Shown here: piece after piece, positions 1 through 14,339 of the stretch
Numbering within the stretch: position 1 is the stretch's first letter
How the letters are laid out: the number at the start of each line of letters is the position of its first letter
NCBI GenBank assembly: GCA_964014485.1
Contig: CAXHAT010000202.1
Coordinates: 1-14,339, forward strand
DNA length: 14,339 nt
Reading direction: 5' to 3'
Source: an uncultured Deferribacteres bacterium
Lineage (GTDB): Bacteria > Zhuqueibacterota > Zhuqueibacteria > Zhuqueibacterales > Geothermadaptataceae
The notes under the pieces: model-generated
Database searches by the model: none
What the model saw: only the letters and a program-made list of their open reading frames with translations
What the model was told of the DNA's origin: nothing
Translations under genes and position numbers: made by a program

Positions 1-162
1 GTCCCTCCGGGACAAGGTGCAAGTTATCCACAACCTTTTTATCGCGCGTGCGCCTTCTCGGGAATGACTGTGGGCAAGGGCTTTTACACTTGAAATTACT
101 TCGTAAAAAACCAACCCAGTCAATCGTGTTTATCCCGTCCGAAAACAAACTCCGTAAGTTCA

Positions 163-1362
163 ATGCTTTCCTATAAAACAGATTTCTTAAAATTCATTTG
201 TCAGACTTCAGACGAACCGATGGGGCTGGACGTGGTTCGCGGCGAAGGACCGTACGTTTTTACCCGCGACGGACGGCGCTACCTCGACCTGATTTCCGGC
301 ATCGGCGTGGTCAATATCGGCCACGGGCGGCGTGAAATTATCAACGCAATTCGCGAGCAATCCGAGCAGTACTTGCACCCAATGGTTTATGGCGAGTTTG
401 TCATGAGTCCGCAAGTCGCGTATGCCAAAGTACTGGCGGAAATCCTGCCCGGCGAGATCGACAATATTTTCTTCTGTAACAGCGGCGCCGAGGCGGTGGA
501 AGGCGCGATCAAAACCGCTCGCAAATTCACCGGACGAAAGCGCGTTTTTAGTTTCGACGGTTGCTATCACGGCGACACGTTCGGCGCGCTGTCGCTGCAA
601 TCGGAGTCGAACTACAAAACGCCGTTTGAGCCTTTGCTGCCCGAAACGGCGTCGTTAAAATGGCATTCCTTCGAAGCGCTCTCTCAGATTGATGAACAAA
701 CTGCAGGCGTGGTCATCGAGCCGATTCAAGGCGAAGGCGGCGTGCGCATCCCAGGCAAGGAATTTATGATTGCCTTGCGAGATCGCTGCACGGAAACAGG
801 CGCGCTGCTGATTTTCGACGAAGTGATGACCGGTTTTGGCCGAACGGGGAAGCTTTTCGCGGCGGAGCATTTTGATGTCACGCCGGACGTCATTGTGCTG
901 GCAAAAGCCTTGGGCGGTGGATTGCCGTTGGGCGCTTTCGCTGCCCAGAAAAACGTGATGAAAACGCTGTCTGAAAATCCGCCCCTGGCGCACGTGACGA
1001 CTTTTGGCGGCAATCCGCTTTGCTGCGCCGCCGGTCACGCTGGATTGAAAATTTTGCTTAAAGAAAAGCTGGCGGAAAATGCGGTAAAGATTGGGGCGCG
1101 CTTCAACGCAGGTTTTTCAGAGCTGCGCAAGATGTTCGATTTTCTCAAGGAAATCCGCCAAATTGGCTGCTTCATCGGCGTTGATTTTGAACGAGGCGAG
1201 CAAACCATGAAATTCGCCAAGAATTGTCTGGAAAACGGCTTGATCGTCGGCTGGACGCTGCATCATTCAAACATTCTGCGCATGGCCCCGCCGCTGATTT
1301 TAACAAACGACGAAATTGACGACGCGCTTGAAATCATGAAATCGGCGCTCCGAAAAATTTGA
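163..1362 (+). CDS. Class-III PLP-dependent aminotransferase (acetylornithine/putrescine aminotransferase-like)
   Basis: 399-aa ORF with the family motifs YLDLISGIGVVNIGH, FFCNSGAEAVEGAIK, YHGDT, VIEPIQGEGG, LIFDEVMTGFGRTG, PLP-lysine motif LAKALGGG, TTFGGNP and LRMAPPL. Substrate (ArgD vs PatA vs other) cannot be resolved by eye. Confidence 0.92.
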   Translation: MLSYKTDFLKFICQTSDEPMGLDVVRGEGPYVFTRDGRRYLDLISGIGVVNIGHGRREIINAIREQSEQYLHPMVYGEFVMSPQVAYAKVLAEILPGEIDNIFFCNSGAEAVEGAIKTARKFTGRKRVFSFDGCYHGDTFGALSLQSESNYKTPFEPLLPETASLKWHSFEALSQIDEQTAGVVIEPIQGEGGVRIPGKEFMIALRDRCTETGALLIFDEVMTGFGRTGKLFAAEHFDVTPDVIVLAKALGGGLPLGAFAAQKNVMKTLSENPPLAHVTTFGGNPLCCAAGHAGLKILLKEKLAENAVKIGARFNAGFSELRKMFDFLKEIRQIGCFIGVDFERGEQTMKFAKNCLENGLIVGWTLHHSNILRMAPPLILTNDEIDDALEIMKSALRKI

Positions 1363-1399
1363 AAATTGACGGCATTAAACGAATCAAAAGGCCTCAGAA

Positions 1400-1720
1400 T
1401 TGAAGGGACTATCTGTTCGTCATATTTTCGAAAATGAAATCGAAGCCTACTGCGCGATGCGCCTGCGTCTCTGGCCTGAGGGAACAATGGACGAGTTTAA
1501 GGGCGAGCTTGACCAGATGCTCAAAATGCCGGAAATGTTCGCTATGCTTGTTTGCGTCACCAAAAGCGGTGAGATGATCGGCTTTATCGAACTGGCGCGG
1601 CGTGAAGAATCGACGGAACTGCCCATCCGTCGTATCGGCTATATCGAGGGTTGGTATGTCGAACCGGAATATCGCAAAAAAGGCGTCGGGCGAGTGCTGG
1701 TAGTGCTTTGTCAATCCTGA
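1400..1720 (+). pseudogene. GNAT acetyltransferase, AAC(6')-I-like, C-terminally truncated by IS630 fragment
   Basis: Motifs MRLRLWP, GEMIGFIEL and GYIEGWYVEPEYRKKGVGRVLV (motif A). The normal C-terminal part is missing; after ..CTG GTA (TA at 1701-1702) the sequence switches to IS630-type end sequence and stops at 1720. Confidence 0.75.
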
Positions 1721-1830
1721 ACTTTGGGTGCTGTCTTTTTAGTTTAATTCGCGCGTCTTTCGTTTGAAATCTCCAATCGACGGCTTTGTTTTTTTCGTTT
1801 CTTTCTTTGTACCAGACCATCTCTAACGTC
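1701..1830 (-). mobile_element. IS630-family transposase 3' remnant with terminal inverted repeat
   Basis: Minus-strand translation WYKERNEKNKAVDWRFQTKDARIKLKRQHPK matches the IS630 C-terminal signature (W..ERN....V.W.F.T.DARIKLK.LYP). It ends in TA-GTGCTTTGTCAA (1701-1714), consistent with a TA target and IS630 end. The catalytic portion is absent. Confidence 0.8.
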
Positions 1831-1831
1831 A

Positions 1832-3472
1832 AAATGCATCCTCACGATCTTATCCATATTCGCAACAACCCTTTTTCGCCCAGTAAACGGACGACCGCGG
1901 CGGCGTGCAACCCCGCGAACCAGCTCCGCCGCCCGTAGTCAAGGGCGCTGAAATCGTCGGGAAGCGCACGCTGGACAGTAAAACCTGGTTCAATCCCAAC
2001 AGCAACACCGTCACCATTGAAACGAGCACCGGCTACATGCACTGGCGCGATCAAGCGGGGCGATTCCATGAAATCGACCGCAACATCGCGCTCAAGCCTG
2101 ACAGCTCCGGCTATGCAGCGCGGCCAAAGGACTTTACAAATCCGAATTTGCTTTCGACCTGACAAGCGAAGAGTGGCCAGTCGTTTTTCAAACCCACGAC
2201 AGCGCTTTTTTTCGTGCAAGATTTAAGGGCTTCGCCTACTACAACAGCGCCAACAAAAAGCTGGAGATTATTTACGACGCACAACCTGCACAAGCGCAAG
2301 CCGAAGGCAACAAAATTCGCTACACGAATGCCGTTGCCAACTTTGATCTAGAGTATACCTACCACGATGACCGCTTGAAACAGTGGGCTTATTTGAAACA
2401 AGGATTTAGAGACGTCCTGCCTTCAGCGCCGCGAGGCTGGAAAGCTGATAGAACCTGGCTCATGATGCTCTCAGAAATTGAGGTGGAAGGCGAACTGGAG
2501 TCCTTTGTTGATGACACGCTTGTTTCGGAGAAGAAAAACGGCAAAAAACTGAAACTTGAATTCGAAGGCAAGAAACGACTGCGTTTCAGAGACGAGGCTG
2601 GTAAAGACAAATTTTCCTTGCCCAAAGACCTTGCCTTCCATTCCGCGCGCGATCAGGCAACAACGGAAATGCACCGTTTTTTCTATGAGAATGACGGCAA
2701 GAGCTACATGATCACCGGCGTTTCGCTTGAGTGGCTCAACGACCAGCCCGCCGGAACCATCGTCCTCGATCCGACCATCGAACTCGCCCAGGCTTCGGAT
2801 GACGTCTGGATTGAACACAACAAAACCGCCACCTTCGACGGCAATAGCGAAATCCGCATTGGCCGCAACGGATCGTCCGATTGGAAACGCAGTCTGGTTC
2901 GCTTTGATCTCGCTGACATTCCTTCCGGCGCGGAAATCACCAGCGCCAGTCTGCAGCTCTACTTCTACGGCGTAGACGGAACGCCGGTCAATCGCACCGT
3001 GAATTGCTACCAGGTGCTGAAAAACTGGGAAGAAGGCGAAGCCAATTGGGAAGAACGCAAGGAAGAAATCTTCTGGGGAACTTTCGGCGTAGGGCTGGAT
3101 GACGTTGACGCCAAAACAACCGCCGAAGACGCGCAAGACTGGGACGACGAATACCCGACCTGGAAAAGCTACGATCTCACCGACCTGACGCAAATGTGGC
3201 TCGACGGCACGGAAAACAACTACGGCGTTGCCCTTTGGGCCACCAATGAAGACGACTACACCGACAAAGACGAAAAGCTCATTTACTCTTCCGAATATAC
3301 CGGCGATCCCAGCCTGCGCCCTAAGTTGGTCGTGAGTTATACGCTCAACCCATTGGCTGAAATCGCCTACGACGAACTCAGGAGACCGACTTCGATCACC
3401 TTCGCCAACGGCGTGGTTGAGACCACTTCTACTCCCCGACTTCAAAATAGCCGTCGCGTTGATGCATTTTGA
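1832..3472 (+). pseudogene. Degenerate secreted DNRLRE-domain protein, N-terminal part of an RHS/YD-repeat-type gene
   Basis: Signal-peptide-like KCILTILSIFATTLF(fs)AQ* at 1832-1886. Frame of 1905: EIVGKRTLDSKTWFNPNSNTVTIETSTGYMHWRDQAGRFHEID, typical of wall-associated RHS N-termini. One-base frameshift near 2113-2125 into a frame open 2102-3472 (KGLYKSEFAF...IVLDPT). Then a DNRLRE-type domain (RSLVRFDLADIPSGAEITSASLQLY, WEEGEANW, DLTDLTQMWLDG..NYGVAL, SSEY..DPSLRPKLVVSY) and one YD-like repeat start (YDELRRPTSITFANGV) before truncation. Confidence 0.75.
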
Positions 3473-3500
3473 TCAGCTAAATTGAACTCAGCGGAGTTAC

Positions 3501-3529
3501 TTGACTTTTCGCCGAATGAAGGTTATTTT
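3501..3529 (+). promoter_or_regulatory. Putative sigma70 promoter for the DUF4178-led cluster
   Basis: TTGACT (3501-3506), 17-nt spacer, TATTTT (3524-3529). About 105 nt upstream of the ATG at 3635, which has the SD GAGGAG (3623-3628). Confidence 0.55.
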
Positions 3530-3634
3530 GAGCAGATTTCAATAAGCAAAAGAAAGAATAAGAACGTCTGGTTTCACCGAAACATCATCCACGTTCCGGC
3601 GTAGGGTCTCGGGGAATTTATTGAGGAGAATAAA

Positions 3635-4174
3635 ATGGCTTTGATGGATTTTTTTAAGAAAGACGAGAAAGAAGAATTTGATCCGCTGGCCGACCTTGAA
3701 TTGTCCAAGCTCAAGGTTGGCTTTTTTTTGGATTATGACATGAAAACCTGGGAAGTCACCGCCTGGAACAAGTACGATCTTGACGGCGACATTGTCAACG
3801 AATGGGAGTTGACGTCCGGGCGCGAAAAATGGTATTTAGAACGCGCCGAAGACGACGACGTCGAATGGACGTTTTCAAAAAAAGTTCCGTTTGGCATGCT
3901 TGGCTCCGGCGTTCGGCAGCATATTATTGACAATGAAGATCCGCCCGAAGAAATTACATTAAAAGATACAACCTACTATCTTGACGAGTCCGGCCCCGGA
4001 CAACTCTACGCCAATGGCCGCGGCGTTCCGAAGCCTTTTGTTTATTGGACATTCATCGATGAAAACGATGAGAAATTTGTCACCATTGAGCAGTGGGGCG
4101 AAGAAGAGTTTGAAGCGGCCGCCGGGACATATGTCGAAGAGTACCAGTTTACCAATATTTTGCCGGCGGCCTAG
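3635..4174 (+). CDS. DUF4178 domain protein
   Basis: 179-aa acidic protein with LKVGFFLDYDMKTWEV..Y, EWEL, WYLE..EDDD.EW, PPEEI...YYLDESG, YW.F.DE..KFVTIEQWGEEEFE. Strong SD. Context next to DUF350, spermidine synthase and PspA fits the family. Confidence 0.8.
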   Translation: MALMDFFKKDEKEEFDPLADLELSKLKVGFFLDYDMKTWEVTAWNKYDLDGDIVNEWELTSGREKWYLERAEDDDVEWTFSKKVPFGMLGSGVRQHIIDNEDPPEEITLKDTTYYLDESGPGQLYANGRGVPKPFVYWTFIDENDEKFVTIEQWGEEEFEAAAGTYVEEYQFTNILPAA

Positions 4175-4278
4175 AAATCAGAGAGCTTTGAAATTTTTGA
4201 GTGTTAGATCAATGGGAAGATCGTTCTGCGATTGAATCAATCCAACACTCCGTTTTCAAAATTAGAGGAGTCTGAGTC

Positions 4279-5016
4279 ATGAAAAAATTAACTGTTTTTG
4301 GCGTGTTCTTCGCTTTGTTTTTGGGCGCTTGCGGTGCTGATACGCCGGTGAAACGGTTGCAAAGCGATCTTGATAGCTTTCCGGAATACAGCATCGTACT
4401 CCAGGACATGAAAGAAGAAGGCAATTTCTTTTCGGACTATTTTCACCGTTACAAAGTCATCACCGGCGAAAAAGTTGACGGTGCAGACAGCGTGAGCTAT
4501 CGTACGGAAATTCTAGAGTGGGAGCAGGTCGAAGAAAAATTTTACAAGGACCACGCAAACTATTTAGGGATGGTTTTGGCTTCCAAAGGCCCGGACGGCA
4601 AGGTGAGCGATTCGAAGGAACCCCCGGGCTATCAATACGTCGGCAATCCGCAATACGGAACATGGCGAACCGATAACAGTGGCAACTCGTTTTGGGCTTG
4701 GTACGGCAAGTACGCGATGATGAGCAGCGTTTTCGGCATGTTTAACCGCCCAATTTACCGCAACGATTTTGATGACTATCGCAGCTATCGCCGCAGCGGG
4801 CGGCCGTATTACGGCAGCAACAATCGGTACGGCACGAGCGGCAGTTACACACAACAATCCAACAAGTCTTTCTATGACCGGCGTGTTGCGAAAGAGACCG
4901 CAAAAAAGCAAAGTTTCGCCGAAAAAGTAAAACAGCGCTCCCGCAAAACCAATACGCGTACTTCTCGCAGCAATATGAGCAGCGTCCGCAGCCGCAGCAG
5001 CCGAGGAGGGAAGTAA
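4279..5016 (+). CDS. Uncharacterised lipoprotein with Tyr/Gly-rich middle and Arg/Ser-rich basic tail
   Basis: Signal peptide with lipobox LGAC (Cys18), PPGYQYVGNPQYG.W...FWAWYGKY motif, tail ..SSVRSRSSRGGK. SD GAGGAG upstream. Confidence 0.8.
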   Translation: MKKLTVFGVFFALFLGACGADTPVKRLQSDLDSFPEYSIVLQDMKEEGNFFSDYFHRYKVITGEKVDGADSVSYRTEILEWEQVEEKFYKDHANYLGMVLASKGPDGKVSDSKEPPGYQYVGNPQYGTWRTDNSGNSFWAWYGKYAMMSSVFGMFNRPIYRNDFDDYRSYRRSGRPYYGSNNRYGTSGSYTQQSNKSFYDRRVAKETAKKQSFAEKVKQRSRKTNTRTSRSNMSSVRSRSSRGGK

Positions 5017-5067
5017 ACAGTAGCATGTAAGCAGTGTATTGCTCGCTGCTTACAGCTCACTGTCTAC
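5013..5067. repeat. Intergenic imperfect palindrome
   Basis: GTAAACAGTAGCATGTAAGCAGTG (5013-5036) pairs with CGCTGCTTACAGCTCACTGTCTAC (5044-5067). Confidence 0.6.
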
Positions 5068-5140
5068 GAAAAATAGAACCGCTCATTCCGAAAAGTTTAC
5101 TTCACAAAAAGCCGCCTGGCTTATATTTCCGGAGGGTAAA

Positions 5141-5983
5141 ATGTCACTCGACCAAATCATTACCGCGTTGGTTTATCTTGCCGCCGTGTTTTTTGTTTTC
5201 ATCATCGGAAAGTTCGTTTTTGATAAAATAAACCGACGCTTCGATCTCAAACATGAGCTTTTGCAGAACGATAATTTCGCGTTGGCGCTGACTGTTGTCG
5301 GCTATTATTCCGGGCTGATTTTCGCGCTTGGAGGCGTGCTTTACGGCGACTCAGCCGGGCTCGTTAACGATCTCATTGATATCGTGCTTTATGGCCTGAT
5401 GGCGATCATTCTGCTCAATTTGTCAGGTATTATCAACGACAAGATCGTCCTGCACACTTTTGATAACACCAAAGAAATTATCGACGACCGCAATGCGGGC
5501 ACCGGCGCTATTGAAGGGGCGAATTATCTGGCGTCTGGCCTCATGATTTCCGGGGCCATTTCGGGCGAAGGCGATGTGGTGACGGCGCTGGCGTTTTGGG
5601 CTCTTGGGCAAGCCGCCATCGTTGTCGGCAGCAAAATCTACAATCTGATCACGCCGTTTGATGTTCACGCCGAAGTGGAAAAAGACAATGTCGCGGTTGG
5701 CGTGGCTTTCGCAGGCGTTTTGGTGGCGATTGGCAACGTTGTGCGCGTCGGCGTTTCCGGCGATTTTGTCTCCTGGAGCGAAAATCTGGCTGTCTTTATC
5801 GTAGTCGTTGTGTTTGGCTTCATCCTGCTGCCAGTCGTGCGATACATCACCGACAAAATGCTTTTGCCGGGAGAAAAACTGACCGATGAATTGATCAACC
5901 AGGAAACGCCCAATGTCGGCGCTGGGGCGATTGAGGCATTTTCCTACGTCGCGGCGTCGTTTCTTATCGGGTGGGTGATATAA
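5141..5983 (+). CDS. DUF350 family multi-pass membrane protein
   Basis: Likely start is ATG 5141 after SD GGAGG, rather than 5039. About 8 hydrophobic helices and four repeats of (F)D..xE...N.A.G/A (FDLKHELLQNDNFALAL, FDNTKEIIDDRNAGTGA, FDVHAEVEKDNVAVGV, EKLTDELINQETPNVGAGA). Confidence 0.88.
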   Translation: MSLDQIITALVYLAAVFFVFIIGKFVFDKINRRFDLKHELLQNDNFALALTVVGYYSGLIFALGGVLYGDSAGLVNDLIDIVLYGLMAIILLNLSGIINDKIVLHTFDNTKEIIDDRNAGTGAIEGANYLASGLMISGAISGEGDVVTALAFWALGQAAIVVGSKIYNLITPFDVHAEVEKDNVAVGVAFAGVLVAIGNVVRVGVSGDFVSWSENLAVFIVVVVFGFILLPVVRYITDKMLLPGEKLTDELINQETPNVGAGAIEAFSYVAASFLIGWVI

Positions 5984-6076
5984 TTTACGATTGCCCCAAT
6001 TAGTTTTTTGATGAAACTGCAGCGCGTTCGGCCTACTTGTTTAGGGTGATGAATTCAAAATTATCAATCAACATGT

Positions 6077-6106
6077 TGTAGGGGTTCAATATTTTGAACC
6101 CCTACA
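6077..6106. repeat. GTAG-type REP-like palindrome
   Basis: TGTAGGGGTTCAA-TATT-TTGAACCCCTACA, a perfect 13-bp stem with GTAG/CTAC ends. Confidence 0.75.
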
Positions 6107-6506
6107 TTTGGTATGCCGGTCACTCAGAGCCTATGTTTTTGAACAGCTCCATAAATTCCTAAATTTAGGACGAACAGCTCGCGATTCTCATAAATGAGAT
6201 TTCGGGTGCCAAGCTCACCCGAACAAAAACAATTTAAATAACGAAATCTCAGCTCAATTCTGCTAAAACCCCGCCTACAGCTTTTCTCCCGTTTACGGTA
6301 CTATAGTTGCCCATACTCTTGCCAACCTTTTCCAAATAATCGAAAAATCATTTATCGAAGGTTTACCGACAAGCCTTTTTTGAATTTGTGGCGAACGCCG
6401 GCGAATTCAAGACGACAATTCTGAAGTTCTCAAAGAAACCCCAATTATATAGATTTCATTGTTCAGTAGCATTGTTTCTGTTAACATTTGACGGAGGAGA
6501 TTTGTT

Positions 6507-7079
6507 ATGAGAAACCGCAAATTGCTCGTCTTGTTCTCATCGGCCATCCTGATTTTTTTTCTTAATTCATGCGGCGATATGAGAGAACAATCCGATGACG
6601 CGCTATCTGGTGGAACAGAGTTCAAATCCAATCATGGGCAGGCTGGAGTGATTGATGACGTTTCCGAAAAGAATATTTTGCAGATAGCTGTCGGTTCCGC
6701 CGATCATACGACTCTTGTTGCTGCTGTGAAAGCCGCTGGTTTGGAGAATGTCTTGGTCAATCCCGGCCCATTGACGGTTTTCGCGCCAAACAATGCTGCA
6801 TTTGAGAAGTTACCTGCGGGGACAGTTGAAGAACTGCTGAAACCGGAAAACAAGGGAAAGCTGGCTACAATCGTAACTTCACACGCGTCGCCTGGAACAT
6901 TTATGGGAGATCTTCTGGCTGACGGAACAAAGATTTATCTGGCGACAGGTCAATATGTAGATGTAGTAGTCAAAGACGGCGATACTTACATTAACGGCGC
7001 AAAAATACTCGGTACTGTTGACGCTTCCAATGGCGTTGTTCATGTCATCGATCAGGTTTTTCTGTTTCCTGAAAAATAA
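6507..7079 (+). CDS. Fasciclin (FAS1) domain lipoprotein
   Basis: Lipobox LNSC. FAS1 motifs TTLVAAVKAAGL, GPLTVFAPNNAAF (H1) and ASNGVVHVIDQV (H2). SD GGAGGAG upstream. Confidence 0.93.
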   Translation: MRNRKLLVLFSSAILIFFLNSCGDMREQSDDALSGGTEFKSNHGQAGVIDDVSEKNILQIAVGSADHTTLVAAVKAAGLENVLVNPGPLTVFAPNNAAFEKLPAGTVEELLKPENKGKLATIVTSHASPGTFMGDLLADGTKIYLATGQYVDVVVKDGDTYINGAKILGTVDASNGVVHVIDQVFLFPEK

Positions 7080-7136
7080 AAGCGCAGGCCGGCTCTAAAA
7101 TACAGTTATCGTTTGACTCTGACTTTGAGCGTTGGA

Positions 7137-7176
7137 AACGACAAAAGGGAATCAAAATGGATTCCCTTTTGTCGTT
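7137..7176. terminator. Intrinsic (probably bidirectional) terminator after fasciclin gene
   Basis: Perfect 17-bp stem AACGACAAAAGGGAATC / GATTCCCTTTTGTCGTT with a 6-nt loop and A- and T-tracts flanking the core stem. Confidence 0.75.
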
Positions 7177-7439
7177 AATCCTCATATGCTGCGATTTCTC
7201 ACATCTATTCACCTTACCTCTTTTACGGGGCTTGCTTTAGGATTTATGAATCCGGCAATGGTTAGTCGTGCTCATTTCGCCAATGTTTACGCGCAAAAGC
7301 GATCAAAAAATTCTTCAATAAAAATTGCCGCATCAATAGTTGTTTTCATAACACAGGCCGTCTCTAAATTCGTTGTGTTTAGTTCCATATTTTGCTACTG
7401 TATTTTGCAACGAATGAACGGCGGCTATGACGATAGAGA

Positions 7440-7482
7440 AAATTTCATGAAATTTGAACCCGCCTCAACATTTTTCCATAAT
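7440..7482 (+). promoter_or_regulatory. Putative sigma70 promoter with overlapping 16-bp palindromic operator
   Basis: TTGAAC (7454-7459), 17-nt spacer, CATAAT (7477-7482). Perfect palindrome AAATTTCATGAAATTT at 7440-7455. Confidence 0.5.
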
Positions 7483-7487
7483 ATTTT

Positions 7488-9062
7488 GTGCAAATATCCT
7501 CAGACGTCTCTTTTAGCGTAGCTCAAAAGCGCCAAACTACGATTTTAAAGGCGTGCATTTTCGCGACCGGACTTGCCGGAATCGTGGCGGAATATGTGAT
7601 GTCTACGCTGGCGAGTTACTTGCTCGGCAATCCGGTTGTGCAGTGGACGATCACCATCTCGCTCATGTTGTTCGCAATGGGCTTGGGAAGCCGTTTGAGT
7701 AAGTTGGCCGAGCGCGCCTTGCTAGATTTTTTCATTACCATCGAACTCGCCCTTTCGCTGCTCTGCGCCATGAGCGCCACTTTGATCTATTTTCTTACCG
7801 CATTTGTACAAAGCATCGATTTCTTTATCTACCTGATTTCCATTATGATCGGCCTGCTGATCGGGCTCGAGGTGCCGCTGGTCACGCGCTTGAACAGTTA
7901 TTTCGAAGAGTTGCGCGTCAATATCAGTTCGGTGATGGAAAAAGATTACTACGGGGCCTTACTGGGCGGCCTGCTCTTCGCGTTTGTCGCGCTGCCTTAT
8001 CTCGGCCTGACTTACACGCCGATTGCGCTGGGAGCAGTAAATCTCGCCGTTGCCGCTGTGTTGTTTTTTCAGCATCGTCAACAATTGCATTATCGACGCA
8101 GTTTGTCCGCCGGTTTCGCGATTTTGCCCGTTTTGCTTATTTCTCTCGCTGTTTTTGCCAAACCCATCGTGCTTTTCGGAGAGCAGCAAAATTACCGCGA
8201 CAAAGTGATTTACGAGCAGCAAACGCCCTATCAAAAAATTGTGCTGACGAAGTGGAAAAACGACTTTTGGCTTTATCTCAACAACAGCCAACAATTCAGC
8301 ACCTACGACGAAGAAAAGTATCACGAACCGCTCGTGCTCCCGGCCATGCTTGCCAGCGCCGCACGAAAAAATATCCTGATTCTGGGAGGCGGCGACGGTT
8401 TGGCGGTGCGCGAAACGCTCAAATTCAATGAGGTCGAGAGCATCACTTTGGTGGACATCGATCCGGCGGTTACGAAGCTCGGCAAAAGCAATCCGTTATT
8501 TCTCAAGGCAAACGAGGGCGTTCTTGAAGATTCGCGCGTTGAAATCGTGAATCAAGACGCCTTTACTTTTCTCGCGAACGAACGCCGCATTTTTGATGTT
8601 GTCATCATCGATCTCCCCGACCCGAAATCGCTCGGCTTGTCTCGCTTATATTCAAAACAATTTTACGAAACTATCAAAAAACGCCTCTCGCCCGGCGGCG
8701 TTGTAGTAACGCAGGCGACGAGCCCGTTTTTTGCGCAAAAGGCATTTCTGTGCATCTTGAAAACCATGGGTGCGGCTGGCCTCAATGCGCAGGCTTTTCA
8801 CAATCATATCCCAACGATGGGCGAGTGGGGTTGGGTGATCGGCATGAACGCCGGAAGCTTTTCTACAGTCGATTTGAAATCACGGCTCTTAAAACTTGAC
8901 TTTAGCGGTCTCGAAACGCGATTTTTAAACCATGAAGCGATGCGCGGCATGTTAAGTTTTGGCAAGGGCATGATGGAGCAGATTCCAGACATTGAAGTCA
9001 ACGACGAATTCAACCTCACGCTTTTTCAGTACTACACCAGCGGCGCTTGGGATTATTATTAG
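7488..9062 (+). CDS. speE: Membrane-anchored polyamine aminopropyltransferase (spermidine synthase-like)
   Basis: N-terminal multi-TM domain (ATGLAGIVAEY..LLGN, GLEVPL, DYYGALLGG) fused to a spermidine synthase domain (QTPYQKI, QFSTYDEEKYHEPLV, ILILGGGDGLAVRE, VDIDP, IIDLPDP, LYSKQFY, IPTMGEWG). Confidence 0.9.
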   Translation: MQISSDVSFSVAQKRQTTILKACIFATGLAGIVAEYVMSTLASYLLGNPVVQWTITISLMLFAMGLGSRLSKLAERALLDFFITIELALSLLCAMSATLIYFLTAFVQSIDFFIYLISIMIGLLIGLEVPLVTRLNSYFEELRVNISSVMEKDYYGALLGGLLFAFVALPYLGLTYTPIALGAVNLAVAAVLFFQHRQQLHYRRSLSAGFAILPVLLISLAVFAKPIVLFGEQQNYRDKVIYEQQTPYQKIVLTKWKNDFWLYLNNSQQFSTYDEEKYHEPLVLPAMLASAARKNILILGGGDGLAVRETLKFNEVESITLVDIDPAVTKLGKSNPLFLKANEGVLEDSRVEIVNQDAFTFLANERRIFDVVIIDLPDPKSLGLSRLYSKQFYETIKKRLSPGGVVVTQATSPFFAQKAFLCILKTMGAAGLNAQAFHNHIPTMGEWGWVIGMNAGSFSTVDLKSRLLKLDFSGLETRFLNHEAMRGMLSFGKGMMEQIPDIEVNDEFNLTLFQYYTSGAWDYY

Positions 9063-9074
9063 ACGGCGGATACA

Positions 9075-10082
9075 TTGAGAACGCGAATTTACAGGTTTTT
9101 TCGTTTATTACAGCGCGAGAATTTTTTCAAGCTTCTGGCAACTATCGCGGTTTTAATGTTTGTCAGCGCCGCCGGCGTGTCATATTTTGAAGGCGACTGG
9201 GCATATTACGATTCACTGTGGTGGAGCATCGTTACGCTAACAACGGTTGGGTATGGCGATATCTCGCCGTCTTCGCTGGGCGGACGTTTGATCGGCATTA
9301 CGATTATGCTGCTTGGCATTGGCATTTTGGGGATGCTCACCGCTTCTATTGCCAGTATTTTTGTGGAAAGAAAAATGAAGGAAGAACGCGGCATGAGTTC
9401 GTTTGATTTCAACGAGCATATTATTATTTGCGAATGGAATTCCAGAGCGCGAGCGATACTTGCGGAACTGCGCCGAGACGTTCGGAGCGCTGAAAAGCCT
9501 GTCATCCTGATTGCAAATCTGGATATTAAACCGGTCGAGGACGATGATCTGTTTTTTATCAAAGGCCGCGTTAATGAAGAAAATTTACAGCGCGCTCATC
9601 TCCAAAAAGCCGCGACCGTCATCATTTTAGGTAATGACAATTTAGACGAAGATGCCAGCGACGCCCAGGCGGTGCTCGCGGCTCTGACCGTGGAAAGCAT
9701 AAACCGGGCCGCTTATTCCATCGTTGAGCTGTTCAATGAATCCAACGTTCGCCATTGTCAGCGCGCCGGGACGGACGAGATCATCATCGGGTCCGAATTC
9801 AGCAGTAAATTGATCACGCGGGCGGCGCTCGATCACGGTATAACAAAGGTGATGTCTGAGATACTAAGCTCGAATTTCGGCAATGACTTGGTGAAAGTTT
9901 CGTTGCCGGAAGAACTTGTCGGAAAAGAATTTATTGAAGTGATGACTGAGATGAAACGTCAGCGACAAGCGACCGTATTAGGCGTGCAGAAAAACGGCGA
10001 CGTTATCTCGAACCCGCCGAGTGATTTGATCACCGAAGCGGGCGACGACCTTATCGTCATCGCGCCGCAGCGCCCGACGTAA
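9075..10082 (+). CDS. Two-TM potassium channel with RCK (TrkA-N/TrkA-C) domains
   Basis: Pore helix and filter WWSIVTLTTVGYGDISP between two TM helices, followed by a Rossmann-like RCK region (HIIICEWN, LQRAHLQKAATVIIL, AGTDEII) and TrkA-C (SNPPSD...GDDLIVI). Confidence 0.92.
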   Translation: MRTRIYRFFRLLQRENFFKLLATIAVLMFVSAAGVSYFEGDWAYYDSLWWSIVTLTTVGYGDISPSSLGGRLIGITIMLLGIGILGMLTASIASIFVERKMKEERGMSSFDFNEHIIICEWNSRARAILAELRRDVRSAEKPVILIANLDIKPVEDDDLFFIKGRVNEENLQRAHLQKAATVIILGNDNLDEDASDAQAVLAALTVESINRAAYSIVELFNESNVRHCQRAGTDEIIIGSEFSSKLITRAALDHGITKVMSEILSSNFGNDLVKVSLPEELVGKEFIEVMTEMKRQRQATVLGVQKNGDVISNPPSDLITEAGDDLIVIAPQRPT

Positions 10083-10096
10083 AATGGAATGAACCC

Positions 10097-10456
10097 ATGT
10101 CCGTGTTCTCAAGAATGTACGACATCCTGAAATCGAATATCAGCGACCGTTTTGGCCGCGACGAGCAGGATGATTTTGATCTTTATGATTTTCTCAAGCA
10201 AGAGCGTCAGCCCAACGCTCCCAGAAACGGCCGCAAGCAGCAGAACCGAGACCCGGAACTGGCCAAATTCTACGCGAATCTCGAAACGCCCTATGGCTCC
10301 GACTTGGCGACTGTCAGAAAATCTTATAAACGGCTCATGAGAAAATATCATCCGGACTTGCACTCGAAAGACCCGCGTAAAACGCAAATTGCCAATGAGA
10401 TTGTGCAGGGCTTAAATCAGGCTTATTCAGAACTTGAAAAAAGATTAGCGAATTGA
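10097..10456 (+). CDS. Small class-C J-domain (DnaJ-like) protein with C-terminal J domain
   Basis: YANLE...VRKSYKRLMRKYHPDLH...LNQAYSEL with intact HPD. N-terminal amphipathic helix and polar linker. Confidence 0.9.
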   Translation: MSVFSRMYDILKSNISDRFGRDEQDDFDLYDFLKQERQPNAPRNGRKQQNRDPELAKFYANLETPYGSDLATVRKSYKRLMRKYHPDLHSKDPRKTQIANEIVQGLNQAYSELEKRLAN

Positions 10457-10464
10457 GCTGAAGG

Positions 10465-10538
10465 TTTTTAGGCTGTAGGCTGATAGCATATTTCTCAAAA
10501 GCTAATAGCCTAAAGCCCAAACCCCTACAGTCTAAAAA
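10465..10538. repeat. Palindromic heptamer-repeat intergenic element
   Basis: TTTTTAGGCTGTAGGCTGATAGC (TAGGCTG units) faces GCTAATAGCCTAAAGCCCAAACCCCTACAGTCTAAAAA (reverse-complement units). Confidence 0.65.
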
Positions 10539-10563
10539 TAACAATTATTTAGGAGGACAAAAA

Positions 10564-10959
10564 ATGTCGGAAAACCTGGAAAGGGTCAAGGGATACTTGC
10601 TCGATCTTGACCTCAATATTACGCACGAAGACGAACCTGAAGAACTCGTCGTTGTAGAAGATGAAGAAAGCGGGATTCAAAATCTGGTCATCGATTGCGA
10701 AGCGCCGATCGTCATTCTCGAACAACAAATTATGACTGCTCCCGATGACGTCGGTGATTTTTTCAAACGCTTGCTCCAAATCAACCGCACGCTCGTGCAC
10801 GGCGCTTTTGTTCTGGACGAGGAAGGCAAAAACGTCATCTTTCGCGATACGTTGCAATTGGAAAATCTGGACTTGAACGAAGTGGAAGGCTCAATTTCAG
10901 CGCTCTCGTTGGCGCTTGCCGAAAATGCTGATGAACTTTTGGCTTACGCTAAAAAATAG
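10564..10959 (+). CDS. YbjN / CesT(Tir)-chaperone-like protein
   Basis: 131-aa acidic protein with VIDCEAPIVILEQ, KRLLQINRTLVHGAFVLDE.G..VIFRDTLQLENLD.NE. SD AGGAGG. Lies directly upstream of PspA. Confidence 0.8.
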   Translation: MSENLERVKGYLLDLDLNITHEDEPEELVVVEDEESGIQNLVIDCEAPIVILEQQIMTAPDDVGDFFKRLLQINRTLVHGAFVLDEEGKNVIFRDTLQLENLDLNEVEGSISALSLALAENADELLAYAKK

Positions 10960-11031
10960 TTGCGCGATCCAGTCGGTGCAATGTTCAAAAGAACAAAAGA
11001 GAAAATTATAAACTCATTTGGAGGATAAAAC

Positions 11032-11745
11032 ATGAGCGTATTTAGCAGGATTTTTAAAGTCGGGCAGTCGCACGCCCATTCCGTCGTGGACAAAATGGAA
11101 GACCCGATTAAGATGACCGAGCAAGGCATTCGTGATCTTAAAAAAGATTTACAAGCGGCGATGCAAAGCTTGGCTCAGGTTAAAAGTCTGGCCATTCGTA
11201 TGAAGCGGGATCACGACGATCAGAAGAAGATTGCCGGCGATTATGAGAGAAAAGCGATGCTGTTGCTGCAAAAAGCGCAAGGCGGTGAAATCGACCCGGC
11301 TGAGGCGGACAACCTTGCGACGCAGGCGCTGGTTAAAAAAGAAGAAGCTGACACGCGCGTCACGAGCCTTTCCACGGATTATCAGGCGCAGCAAAAAATG
11401 TCCGATCAATTGCAGGGCAAAGTTGAGAAGTTGAAGCAGACGATTTCAAAATATGAAAATGAATTGATTACTTTGAAAGCGCGTGCGAAAACAGCAACGT
11501 CCATGCGAAAAATCAACCAGCAATTGACAAACGTCGATTCTTCAAGCACGATTTCCATGCTTGAAAAAATGAAAACCAAGGTGAATGAAGAAGAAGCCCT
11601 GGCGGAAGCTTACGGCGACATCGGCCAGATCGGCGGCACTGTGGATGATGACATCGACAAAGCGCTGGCGGGTTCTGAACAAGTCGCTGCGTCGGATTCT
11701 CTCGCAGCGCTCAAAGCAAAAATGGGCGTCTCCGGCTCCAACTAA
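11032..11745 (+). CDS. pspA: PspA/IM30 (Vipp1/ESCRT-III superfamily) protein
   Basis: MSVFSRIF..., MEDPIKMTEQGIRDLKKDL, long coiled coil, LKARAK.A, LEKMK.KV...EA.AEA, C-terminal DSLAALKAKMG. SD GGAGGA. Confidence 0.93.
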   Translation: MSVFSRIFKVGQSHAHSVVDKMEDPIKMTEQGIRDLKKDLQAAMQSLAQVKSLAIRMKRDHDDQKKIAGDYERKAMLLLQKAQGGEIDPAEADNLATQALVKKEEADTRVTSLSTDYQAQQKMSDQLQGKVEKLKQTISKYENELITLKARAKTATSMRKINQQLTNVDSSSTISMLEKMKTKVNEEEALAEAYGDIGQIGGTVDDDIDKALAGSEQVAASDSLAALKAKMGVSGSN

Positions 11746-11750
11746 CGCTC

Positions 11751-11830
11751 GAAGTATTGGATTAATGGAGTATTGGATTGTCGCTGTTTACGGCTTCCAA
11801 TACTCCCCAAATCTTTCACTCCATTATTCA
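11751..11830. repeat. Palindromic octamer-repeat element between convergent genes (possible terminator)
   Basis: Units GTATTGGA/TTAATGGA/GTATTGGA face reverse-complement units. GGAGTATTGGA (11767-11777) pairs perfectly with TCCAATACTCC (11796-11806). Confidence 0.65.
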
Positions 11831-12585
11831 ACTCTTCTGGCGCGTACGCCGAAATCCACGTTATCCTTCACCCAGGCAAAATATTTTTTCTGTTCTTCAA
11901 TCGGCGTCTCCGGGTGAAAAATCTTCGGGTCCTTCCACGTCACCATTACTTCATCGTCCTGCGTCCAAACTTTTACACGCCTGCGAGGCACGCGCGTCTG
12001 CCAGTTCTTTCCGACAACAGCATTGGTATAAAGCAGACGCAGCGTCACGTTTCTGGAAATCGTTTCGAGCGGCTTGAGTTCCAGGCTGCGAAAATCGGTT
12101 TTGCCGTTCTTTTTGACGTCCGGCACGCCGTCGCTGAGCATAACGATTGAGACGGGACGGAGCACCAGATTTCTGTTCTTCACCGTCATCGCCACTTGCT
12201 CAAAAAACGCGTTGTAGTCTGTGAACGGATTCAATTTTTTCTTCGGGAAAATCTCACGCAACCGCGCTTCGATTTCTTCAACGGACTTATCCTGAAAAGT
12301 TTGAATCGGGTAAAAAGTCTTTACTTCATCCGCTTTTGCCCCGCCAATGGAGCCAACGAACAATGCGTTCGGTTGTTCTAAACCGCCAAGCCCGTTCATG
12401 TGCGAATAAAGATAGTGCGCCAGAAAATTGATCGAGTCGTCAAAATGTCCGCCTTTGACGAATGAACCGCTGATATCCACGCCGATAAACATCGTCAATC
12501 TCGGCTTGGGTGCGTCCCGAAAACCACAGCCGGAGATGACCGCCGCGGTCAACAAGAGAATGAGTAAACTTTTGAAATTCTTCAT
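11824..12585 (-). CDS. vWA-domain lipoprotein with MIDAS motif
   Basis: Lipobox ISGC. MIDAS elements FIGVDISGS (DxSxS), FTDY (T) and IVMLSDG (D). Confidence 0.8.
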   Translation of the reverse strand: MKNFKSLLILLLTAAVISGCGFRDAPKPRLTMFIGVDISGSFVKGGHFDDSINFLAHYLYSHMNGLGGLEQPNALFVGSIGGAKADEVKTFYPIQTFQDKSVEEIEARLREIFPKKKLNPFTDYNAFFEQVAMTVKNRNLVLRPVSIVMLSDGVPDVKKNGKTDFRSLELKPLETISRNVTLRLLYTNAVVGKNWQTRVPRRRVKVWTQDDEVMVTWKDPKIFHPETPIEEQKKYFAWVKDNVDFGVRARRVE

Positions 12586-12621
12586 TTATATTCTCCAGAA
12601 AAATCTGTGCATGAGTTTTTG

Positions 12622-12649
12622 GTAGAGACGCGATGCATCGCGTCTCTAT
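12622..12649. repeat. GTAG-type REP-like palindrome
   Basis: G-TAGAGACGCGATGCATCGCGTCTCTA-T: a perfect 26-bp palindrome (12623-12648) in a 78-nt intergenic gap. Confidence 0.8.
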
Positions 12650-12663
12650 AATTTGCATTACTT

Positions 12664-13926
12664 CTACCGGCTATACGCCTTCTGCCCGCTGGGCTCGTAT
12701 CGATTCTGCATCTTCACTGGCCGCTGCGGTTGATGGTTTTGACTCGAAGCGCGTTGTAAAAGCATGGTCGAATCGAGGATTTCCTGGAAGTTTTTAAACG
12801 GCAGTTTGAACAAGTGCGCGCCGCTGATGAGCAGGGTGCAGAAATTGATCGAAGCCGCGATGATTTGCAGTCCTGGAAGCATGAATGAGCCAAGCAACTC
12901 CTGCCCGCGATGTTTGAACCACGCCATGTCCGCCTTGACTTGATCGATCAATGTCGTTGAAGTTTTAGTTTTAACTGGTCTGTGCTCATACTCGCTGCGA
13001 TCAAGCTCAACGCCTTTACCCTTGATGATGGCGAGAATCGTTGGCGTGCCGTCGGCGGCGAACAAGAACCACGAGACGCTGCGAATGCCAAACCAGACGA
13101 ACGCCGCGATGGACAGAATGCCAAAAACGCCCAATTCGAAGTTTGAAGAATACTGCGCCAGCCAAGGCACGAGCGAATCGACGAATTCGCGATAGAGAAA
13201 CAGAACTTCCACGCCCATAACCACGAGTTCGATGATGGTCACGCCAATGATCGCACCGACGTTTTTGCTCTTGACCGCCGTAACGAAATTCGAAAGCACG
13301 GCGTAGCTGCCGAGCGCTATAAAAAACAGGAAAATGCCAAGGGGAATGCGGATCGCGTATTCGCTAAAAGTTTCGCCCGTAAGGTTTGAAAATGTATCGA
13401 GAACGAGCGGGGTCATCACATAAGTAAAGATGACGGTTTCGATGATACACCAGGTCAGCGTGAGAATGACGGCCAGCCAAGGCACGTTCGAATTCATGAC
13501 GCGCTGGCCCATGTTGCTCAGAAAGCGCAACGGCACAAGCAAAAGCTCCAACAGCACCGTCCAAACGCCGACGATGATAATTTTGGCGAATTCAAAAAGC
13601 GTGATTCCGAGATGAATGACGAAGTGAAAAATGCCGCCCCAGAACGCGACGATGGATTTCCCCAAGTCCCACCAGGTGATAAAGAGCGCGTTGATAAATT
13701 CGCGCCGGTTTTTTCGAAAGATTACGGTCAATAAACAGCCAATGCTCATCCAGAGCGCAAAAATGACAGCCATCGCGGGTAGCAAAAGAAAAAGCCTTTT
13801 CGCAACCATCAGCAGGGTCACGTCGGCAGCGCCCCAAACGTACGCGACCACCGCGCCCTGAAATAACATTGGAAAGGTCAACACCGCAACGGCGGCGTTC
13901 AGTAATTGATTGAGATCGATTTGCAT
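12664..13926 (-). CDS. Uncharacterised multi-pass membrane protein
   Basis: 420-aa ORF with many hydrophobic segments, a strong SD (GAGGAGGT) before the ATG and a polar C-terminal tail. No family recognised. Confidence 0.8.
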   Translation of the reverse strand: MQIDLNQLLNAAVAVLTFPMLFQGAVVAYVWGAADVTLLMVAKRLFLLLPAMAVIFALWMSIGCLLTVIFRKNRREFINALFITWWDLGKSIVAFWGGIFHFVIHLGITLFEFAKIIIVGVWTVLLELLLVPLRFLSNMGQRVMNSNVPWLAVILTLTWCIIETVIFTYVMTPLVLDTFSNLTGETFSEYAIRIPLGIFLFFIALGSYAVLSNFVTAVKSKNVGAIIGVTIIELVVMGVEVLFLYREFVDSLVPWLAQYSSNFELGVFGILSIAAFVWFGIRSVSWFLFAADGTPTILAIIKGKGVELDRSEYEHRPVKTKTSTTLIDQVKADMAWFKHRGQELLGSFMLPGLQIIAASINFCTLLISGAHLFKLPFKNFQEILDSTMLLQRASSQNHQPQRPVKMQNRYEPSGQKAYSR

Positions 13927-14121
13927 TTGGATACCTCCTCATCGTGTAAAATATGCAATCTCAACAGCATGACACGAGAAAAGGCAAAGGGTGGGCCAGT
14001 GATAGGGCGGGTAACTTTTTTGAGGTAAAATTAAAAATCGGAGGAGAATGAAAGCCAGTTTTCTCAGGGAAAATTTCTGAGACGCGTAAATATTACATAA
14101 CAAAAGATAGATTTTATCATT

Positions 14122-14339
14122 CTAATTTTCTCGAAGGCTTTCTATATCGGCGAGGTCTCGATGCCGCCCTGAAGATTCTTTGTTTTTAACAATATCTCTC
14201 TTCGAAATGATTGAGATTTCGATTCCTTCAACTGTCACTTCGTTGCGTCTCGTATAGCAATCTTCGAATTGAATGCGGGAAGCTTCGTTGATAACTGATG
14301 TTACGCGCAGTAAAGCATTTCCGAGACTCAACCGTAAAC
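14122..14339 (-). CDS. 3' part of a nucleotidyltransferase-like protein (runs off window end; possibly degenerate)
   Basis: The frame is open to the window edge. C-terminus FEDCY.RR.....GIEI.IISK.D...NK..SGRHRDLADIE.L is typical of the small 'GR.KD..D' nucleotidyltransferase-like family. Confidence 0.6.
   Translation of the reverse strand, partial: LRLSLGNALLRVTSVINEASRIQFEDCYTRRNEVTVEGIEISIISKRDIVKNKESSGRHRDLADIESLREN

Follow-up and report, generated by a model that had tools for sequence, protein, structure and literature searches.

PspA, a membrane-repair protein, and Vipp1 have been known since 2021 to be ESCRT-III proteins of bacteria. Their N-terminal helix, alpha0, is described as the membrane-binding element: the isolated alpha0 peptide of Synechocystis PspA (residues 1-22) binds anionic membranes and turns helical, and M1, R6, R9 and K12 contact lipid head groups, R6 and R9 being critical (bioRxiv 10.1101/2025.06.13.659447). 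According to the same preprint, alpha0 of Vipp1 also contacts the rod wall via basic residues, and alpha0 of PspA makes no protein contacts in membrane-bound rods. Which ATPase remodels these polymers, if any, is called unclear (PMC8281802; PMC11237479), and in the papers cited here the reported link between Hsp70 and PspA/Vipp1 is limited to chloroplasts, where CDJ2, HSP70B and CGE1 of Chlamydomonas act on VIPP1 rods and drive both assembly and disassembly (PMC12798727). In this work, we analysed a 14,339-nucleotide stretch of DNA from an uncultured Deferribacteres bacterium (contig CAXHAT010000202.1, positions 1 to 14,339; hereafter, the window), in which a gene for a 119-aa J-domain protein with an alpha0-like N-terminus (10097-10456, + strand) lies two genes upstream of pspA. 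A first-pass annotation had read this protein as a candidate dedicated Hsp70 co-chaperone that would recruit DnaK to PspA, and had given as background the role of alpha0, that of CDJ2 and the lack of an assigned Vps4-like disassembler in bacteria, in agreement with the literature just cited. Its observation is confirmed by our analysis, and its interpretation is partly supported.

The operon type found in the window is known. Ravi et al. 2024 (PMC11237479) describe a CesT/Tir-PspA polyamine operon, the "second major group", and the window shares with it the DUF4178, lipoprotein, DUF350, synthase, CesT/Tir-like and PspA genes, the lipoprotein being likened by type, without a Pfam match. As in that operon type, a CesT/Tir-like gene (PF22550) lies directly upstream of a YjfJ-type pspA (PF04012); the window differs by adding a fasciclin gene, a K+ channel gene and the J gene. 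The terms DnaJ, J domain, Hsp70 and DnaK do not occur in the main text or in one supplementary file of PMC11237479, nor in the main text of PMC9239133, and the terms PspA, Vipp1 and ESCRT do not occur in the large J-protein survey PMC10410713. No description of an alpha0-J fusion, or of a J protein in PspA operons, was found in the full-text literature, a scope that leaves aside other supplements and subscription journals; the first-pass annotation knew of none either. The J gene and its helix are a component added to a PspA operon type that has been described without it.

Comparison with other systems separates the J protein from each of them. CDJ2-HSP70B-CGE1 is alike by reported role, in that a specialised J protein steers Hsp70 to a PspA-family polymer; in contrast to CDJ2, the window protein is only about 120 aa long, is encoded in an operon with its putative client and would use a copy of alpha0 as its targeting module. 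PspA and Vipp1 carry the same motif at their extreme N-terminus (M-[SG]-h-F-x-R-h-x-[RK]-h-h-[RK]-A-N-h-N, basic at positions 6, 9 and 12), but in the J protein the helix leads into a disordered linker and then a J domain, where PspA and Vipp1 have the alpha1-alpha5 ESCRT-III core, and PF04012 is unmatched. DjlA, a membrane-anchored class-C protein of Proteobacteria, shares a C-terminal J domain and an N-terminus predicted to be membrane-associated. Its model, NF006948, is the best NCBIfam match of the window protein, yet it lies below threshold (35.4 bits, cut-off 162) and covers the J-domain part only, and the window protein has neither a transmembrane segment nor, by Pfam, a TerB-like domain. 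AtcJ of Shewanella oneidensis is a short operonic J protein that binds its partner AtcC through a 21-aa tail (PMC6715715), so that a peptide of ~20 aa outside the J domain gives partner specificity; that peptide is C-terminal, and the window protein reaches 20.6 bits against NF050028 (cut-off 150). Since each of these profile tests failed, the J protein is not a member of the PspA family, DjlA or AtcJ. The likeness to Vps4 and ESCRT-III (MIT-MIM) would lie in the recruitment of an ATPase to remodel an ESCRT-III-superfamily polymer, with Hsp70 instead of an AAA+ protein and with a proposed J adaptor bearing the membrane helix of the polymer itself. What we regard as new is the targeting module, which this J-domain adaptor would have taken over from its likely client.

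Architecture of the J protein and nature of its N-terminal helix

The J protein, which starts MSVFSRMYDILKSNISDRF, consists of an alpha0-like helix of 17-20 residues (codons 1-19, 10097-10153), a variable, charged linker predicted to be disordered (codons 20-51, 10154-10249) and a J domain (codons 52-119, 10250-10453, with the HPD codons at 10349-10357). PF00226 (DnaJ) is its sole Pfam domain (residues 58-114, 35.4 bits, cut-off 27.8). Homologues were gathered as 45 close family members and 144 cluster representatives from a profile search of 1.84 billion proteins, in which the family profile found 82 clusters at E<=1e-30. PF00226 was matched by all 45 close members, and H85, P86 and D87 of the HPD motif are invariant in them. 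In an AF2 model built with these 45 homologues, the J domain (53-118) is confident (pLDDT about 90; helices 53-61, 70-88 and 93-118), the N-terminal helix (3-17) is of low confidence (pLDDT about 53), and the linker falls below 50 at residues 18-32, 38-42 and 44-47, with disorder to about residue 50. Length and sequence of the linker differ freely among homologues, and the N-terminus is conserved. Lacking a G/F region, a zinc finger and a DnaJ C-terminal domain, and being otherwise helix and disorder, the protein fits by domain content the definition of a class C (type III) J-domain protein. By sequence, its J domain has every hallmark of a functional partner of DnaK, and the window genome encodes one full-length DnaK and just two other J proteins.

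Two further features touch on this architecture. The linker contains an acidic-aromatic element (DDFDLYDFLKQ, 10175-10210, about residues 27-38; FDDEDFQDIFSKN or ESFYEEYLRKK in relatives), shown by AF2 as a low-confidence helix at residues 30-37, which may be a second short linear motif. Besides the canonical DnaK, the window genome (G000) encodes an atypical Hsp70 relative, an 870-aa open frame (contig C14:38081-39241) whose likeness to Hsp70 is split into two matching segments (203.5 and 29.8 bits).

In order to compare the N-terminus with proteins of known structure, only the first 24 residues of 64 J-protein homologues were made into a profile, with which all 177,635 distinct PDB sequences were searched. 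The top seven matches were all PspA/Vipp1 proteins, as were 11 of the 17 matches at E<=10, the best being E. coli PspA (4whe, E 9.4e-4), Synechocystis Vipp1 (E 1.3e-3) and Synechocystis PspA (7abk, E 0.021). The PspA/Vipp1 matches begin at the native first residue of the target or at most one residue from it. The first-pass annotation had likewise noted that the helix tracks the N-terminus of E. coli PspA. When the whole J family was compared by hhalign with 58 cognate PspAs, a single match was obtained, between residues 1-20 of both (E 7.2e-4). A six-frame scan of the 8.4-Mb window genome with the N-terminal profile matched its two PspA genes exactly at Met1, neither match being individually significant (12.5 bits, rank 4, E 0.45; 9.0 bits, rank 11, E 6.1).

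Conservation of the helix among homologues, which the first-pass annotation had made a test of its proposal, holds for the subfamily of the window protein. R6 is invariant in the 64 N-termini and at least 90% conserved in the alignment of the 45 close homologues, and the N-terminal consensus is MSxxxRLxxxxRAxL. The N-terminal profile scored at least 8 bits in 153 of 189 family proteins, a count in which the profile sequences partly overlap the proteins scored; 144 matches lie within the first 5 residues. Many of the 36 proteins below 8 bits show a weaker motif, and about a dozen have no motif or are apparently truncated. At the positions that contact head groups in PspA, the family has R at position 6 (64/64), R or K at position 9 (32/64) and R or K at position 12 (54/64). 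Over residues 2-19, the net charge averages +2.1 and the hydrophobic moment 0.45; with a mean hydrophobicity of -0.06 across the family and -0.09 for the window protein, the segment is amphipathic and not membrane-spanning.

A comparison with PspA_IM30, proposed as a check by the first-pass annotation, did not recover the helix. This Pfam model matched none of 14 J-protein N-terminal peptides of 30 aa and all three PspA control peptides, and PF04012 found no match in the window protein or, at E<=10, in the 45 whole family proteins. The control peptides score largely via the EDP/alpha1 start, which the J proteins of the window subfamily do not have, and the likeness is therefore confined to alpha0 and excludes EDP/alpha1. 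Since PspA_IM30 is blind to the J helix, the purpose-built N-terminal profile and hhalign were used instead. The alpha1-alpha5 hairpin core of PspA is not present in the AF2 model. Our reading of these sequence comparisons is that the N-terminal segment is a genuine alpha0-type helix, with nothing further of PspA.

The neighbouring PspA is of the YjfJ type and starts MSVFSRIFKVGQSHAHSVV; its alpha0 spans codons 1-20 (11032-11091). It shares its first six residues with the J protein, encoded by ATG AGC GTA TTT AGC AGG in pspA and by ATG TCC GTG TTC TCA AGA in the J gene, exactly as first stated. Since five of the six codons differ and only 10 of the 18 bases are identical, the two starts are not a recent DNA duplication. 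The identity is real, but it overstates the specific pairing between the two proteins: the J helix scores 20.7 bits against the classical PspA/Vipp1 alpha0 (forms MGLFDRLGRVVRANLN... and MGIFSRFADIVNANIN...) and 9.0 bits against the YjfJ-type alpha0 of its neighbour (consensus MASIFQRxFKVxQSEAHS). All 58 cognate PspAs have R6 and H16, and F4, F8 and K9 are each kept in at least 90% of them. Both proteins start M-S/G-h-F-x-R-h-h. The YjfJ-specific K9, Q12, S13, E14, A15 and H16 are missing from the J helix, which has R12-A13-N/E14-L/I15, as in classical PspA/Vipp1. The J helix being nearer to the classical form than to that of its neighbour, the six identical residues in the window are partly a coincidence of two motif variants.

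A sister subfamily (subfamily B) occurs in the class Polyangia, represented in the alignment by proteins P0030-P0043, P0161-P0168 and others, and by locus L068:6767-7225. Its N-terminus reads MSI(T/G)(K/R)RLxDLA(R/K)(S/A)NLNALL(D/E)(R/K)..., in some members followed by ...EKAADYTDP, and it corresponds to the PspA N-terminus up to the alpha0-alpha1 junction, being more PspA-like than that of the window subfamily. E. coli PspA was the sole non-J-domain protein among the 60 of 72 matches listed for the subfamily-B profile (E 1.3e-3), and by hhalign the subfamily aligned to residues 2-27 of cognate PspAs (E 1.3e-3). The N-terminus is followed by a near-invariant LSDEELEAEL(R/K)RR, a long low-complexity linker and the J domain. 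The LSDEELEAEL(R/K)RR element sits about 10-15 residues past the helix, with D33, L36, E37, E39, R42 and R43 conserved in at least 90%. An origin of LSDEELEAEL in the C-terminal ...DELAALKA... of PspA was considered and dropped, since hhalign against the cognate PspAs aligned N-termini only.

Linkage of the J gene to the CesT-like gene and pspA

In the window, the J gene is followed on the + strand by a gene for a 131-aa CesT/Tir-like (YbjN-like) protein of chaperone fold (10564-10959; PF22550 CesT_Tir_1, E 9.6e-52; PF10722, E 3.3e-7) and by the gene for the 237-aa YjfJ-type PspA (11032-11745; PF04012 PspA_IM30, E 2.3e-47), the closest PDB relatives of which are Vipp1/PspA proteins. In order to determine how general this arrangement is, one genome per species was scanned and the best 80 of 138 relatives were kept as loci, start codons in related loci being inferred from motif and alignment. 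By their record titles, the loci span roughly eight phylum-level groups, among them Calditrichota (Calditrichia/Calditrichaeota), KSB1, Acidobacteriota (many orders) and Latescibacterota, with Nitrospinota, Gemmatimonadota (Gemmatimonadetes), Chlorobi-like/Chlorobiales, Planctomycetota (an Anammoxibacter) and Myxococcota (Polyangia) as further groups, and they include one in a cultured carrier, Sulfidibacter corallicola M133 (L062). The order J, CesT-like, PspA on the same strand was found in 73 of these 80 loci, with median gaps of 41 and 23 nt, and in all 73 the CesT-like gene lies between the other two. Two of the seven remaining loci stop 153 and 278 nt past the J gene. The other five are orphan J genes with unrelated neighbours, four of which retain the helix; all five genomes encode PspA elsewhere, and two of them hold a CesT-PspA dyad without an adjoining J gene.

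Homologues of the other operon genes were also frequent in the 80 loci (synthase in 62, DUF4178 in 59, DUF350 and lipoprotein in 54 each), and in 39 of the 73 triad loci the gene immediately upstream of the J gene, on its strand, encodes a channel homologue. Seven triad loci have no other operon gene in the fetched flanks, indicating that the J gene belongs to the CesT-PspA dyad and not to the channel and polyamine genes. The J gene opens a conserved three-gene unit, which in most cases closes the polyamine/DUF350/DUF4178 PspA operon already known from the literature. Co-occurrence pointed the same way: in a 61-genome sample of the phylum of the window genome, PspA was above cut-off in seven genomes, the J family (E<=1e-12) was found in the identical seven, and in all seven it adjoins PspA. 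As the genomes of this sample are related to one another, this co-occurrence is descriptive and not a clean statistic. Linkage to pspA, the second test set by the first-pass annotation, therefore holds for the window subfamily.

Subfamily B behaves differently. It is present in 35 of 61 genomes of the Polyangia class, and in none of 25 loci was a PspA or CesT-like gene found within 1.5 kb. The helix-J design consequently occurs both inside and outside pspA operons. At the level of whole genomes, J and PspA were both present in 34 cases, J alone in one, PspA alone in 15 and neither in 11 (Fisher p = 1.6e-4, a value that ignores kinship, genome size and completeness).

Signals between the genes of the window unit were also inspected. 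GGAGG ribosome-binding sites are present for the CesT-like and PspA genes and missing for the J gene, which would fit a J protein acting as a sub-stoichiometric, catalytic partner. The 107-nt spacer between the J and CesT-like genes contains an imperfect long hairpin (10457-10531, + strand; RNA fold -30.4 kcal/mol, z -2.9; 4 of 200 shuffles fold equally well). It is not followed by a T-run and hence is no T-run terminator; it might allow the J gene to be expressed separately from the CesT-like gene and pspA. A promoter/terminator scan of positions 9000-12000 gave nothing convincing between genes, and Rfam had no match over the whole window. A search of public sequencing runs found no RNA run; it returned four marine-metagenome DNA entries from two studies. 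A complex prediction for PspA, two CesT-like chains and the J protein, run without controls, gave a score of 0.00 for the J protein as partner, a value that speaks neither for nor against binding.

Further copies of these genes were noted. The window genome encodes a second PspA, of the classical type (MKLFKRASELLKANINHLLDQAEDP...; contig C395:840-1526, locus L002); no J or CesT-like gene is present on this 3,026-base contig end, which leaves about 840 bases on one side. Of the seven genomes in the phylum sample that have PspA, four carry such a second copy. Two metagenome-assembled genomes carry two triads each (L055/L057 and L063/L081) with identical J and PspA N-termini, either by real duplication or by assembly artefact; the L055 and L057 copies share one contig, about 250 kb apart.

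A possible route from DnaK to PspA

From the helix and the gene linkage we infer membrane binding, recruitment of DnaK and PspA as the client. The alpha0-type helix would bring the J protein to the anionic or stressed inner-membrane patches bound by PspA alpha0, and thereby place it beside or under PspA assemblies. The flexible linker would let the J domain reach DnaK-ATP and trigger hydrolysis, and DnaK would then clamp on PspA, which may be a free protein, part of a polymer or bound by the CesT-like protein. The PspA polymer would thereby be assembled, disassembled or recycled at the expense of ATP, in a system that would be the bacterial counterpart of CDJ2-HSP70B-CGE1 on VIPP1 and a functional analogue of Vps4 on ESCRT-III. 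That a membrane-sited J domain on a flexible tether loads DnaK on PspA for polymer turnover is a proposal we regard as evenly poised between right and wrong. The further claim, that DnaK/Hsp70 is, through a J protein with a PspA-type alpha0 address helix, the ATP-driven remodeller of PspA polymers and fills the role that Vps4 has in archaea and eukaryotes, is made tentatively, and we lean somewhat against it. If true, alpha0 would be a portable targeting module that a J domain acquired through fusion with part of a gene for classical PspA.

A number of results weigh against the proposal that the helix sites the J protein at PspA-bearing membranes. The hhalign probabilities are low (26% for the J family and 18% in the second comparison, with the sister subfamily), Pfam recovered the helix neither from peptides nor from whole proteins, and the profile behind the count of helix-bearing proteins overlaps in part with the sequences scored. 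Amphipathicity of the J helix is moderate (mean z against shuffles 1.2, with z >1.64 in 39% of sequences, compared with 90% for the cognate PspA alpha0), the window helix itself has a hydrophobic moment of 0.31 and D9 where R/K is expected, and AF2 places the helix with low confidence. As for linkage, 58 of the 138 relatives lie outside the set of loci, five of the 80 loci are orphans, and subfamily B has no pspA within 1.5 kb in 25 of 25. The client need not be a neighbouring PspA, and the term "dedicated" used in the first-pass annotation goes too far once the whole family is considered.

The same sequence evidence, from the PDB profile and hhalign, would serve a helix that docks on PspA and not on lipid, where alpha0 packs on the polymer wall or on its like; the J protein would then enter or cap the polymer and deliver DnaK directly. 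Such mimicry agrees with the tight coupling of the three genes and with the contact of Vipp1 alpha0 with the rod wall (10.1101/2025.06.13.659447). We think it unlikely, given that the J helix resembles the classical alpha0 more than that of its own YjfJ-type partner, that PspA alpha0 is free of protein contacts in membrane-bound rods according to the same preprint, and that neither subfamily B nor the orphan genes show linkage to pspA. Were the helix instead the peripheral anchor of a general membrane-tethered, DjlA-like J protein, its clients could be the channel, synthase and DUF350 membrane proteins of the operon, or membrane proteins generally, and it would have only its regulation in common with PspA. 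The sub-threshold match to the C-terminal J domain of DjlA, the channel gene directly upstream in 39 of 73 loci and the solitary subfamily B would all suit this explanation. The persistence of the triad without other operon genes in seven loci does not suit it, nor do the presence of J and PspA in the same 7 of 61 genomes, that of PspA in 34 of the 35 J-positive Polyangia-class genomes, or an anchor that is specifically of PspA type and not a generic amphipathic helix; we consider it decidedly unlikely.

The constant position of the CesT-like gene between the J gene and pspA raises the possibility of a shared chaperone epitope, in which the CesT/Tir-like protein, after the model of type-III secretion chaperones binding effector N-terminal regions, would bind the N-termini of both PspA and the J protein, bridging them or letting them compete. 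Both proteins begin with the same motif, and the cognate PspA alpha0 is conserved beyond the needs of amphipathicity, with H16 invariant. Against this idea, the J helix lacks the residues specific to the YjfJ-type alpha0, and two orphan-J genomes have CesT-PspA dyads without an adjoining J gene, so that it appears to us very improbable. Finally, the likeness might be incidental or convergent, and the helix a feature of folding, stability or translation start without a targeting role, as the shortness of the segment, the blindness of Pfam and the low hhalign probabilities would allow. Matches locked to the N-terminus and ranking top in a PDB-wide search, conservation across several phyla of a helix whose adjoining linker varies, and the continuation of the resemblance in subfamily B through ...ANLNALLEKA..D..DP make this reading extremely improbable.

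Siting of the J domain by an alpha0-type helix is the account we favour. For non-photosynthetic bacteria, the family lends an Hsp70-PspA partnership independent support from genomes, and it makes Hsp70 a candidate for the motor that remodels ESCRT-III polymers in bacteria. A transferable address tag for membrane or PspA is a further role that it suggests for alpha0, and, with three separable modules in about 120 aa, the family offers a compact, testable system.

The remainder of the operon and its surroundings

The nine genes from DUF4178 to PspA share one strand in the window. Upstream of the J gene, with its stop codon 14 nt 5' of it, is the gene for a K+ channel with an RCK/TrkA-N domain (9075-10082; PF07885, PF22614, PF02254), preceded by a membrane-domain-fused spermidine/spermine synthase (7488-9062; PF01564, E 5.5e-39; NF002956, 569 bits), the fasciclin-domain protein (6507-7079), a DUF350 (YjfL-family) membrane protein with a double DUF350 (5039-5983; PF03994, E 7e-51), the operon lipoprotein, recognised by its lipoprotein-like N-terminus (4279-5016), and the DUF4178 protein (3635-4174; PF13785, E 2.4e-22), all on the + strand.

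Upstream of the operon, a 365-aa protein (2375-3472) has matches to Disaggr_repeat, CBM96 and TGFb_propeptide; none of the 80 loci contains it. Convergent with pspA, on the - strand, lie genes for a 253-aa lipoprotein and a 420-aa multi-pass membrane protein (11824-13926), with no Pfam family and no homologue in the 80 loci. The fasciclin gene, for which none of the 80 related loci has a counterpart, is followed at its 3' side by a perfect 17-nt inverted repeat (7137-7176); it appears to be a local insertion, complete with a terminator, that splits the operon in the window genome. The interval before it (5984-6506, about 520 nt) has no + strand open reading frame of at least 60 aa and no Rfam match, and contains a pair of 24-nt direct repeats (6141-6164 and 6172-6195) that are 71% identical.

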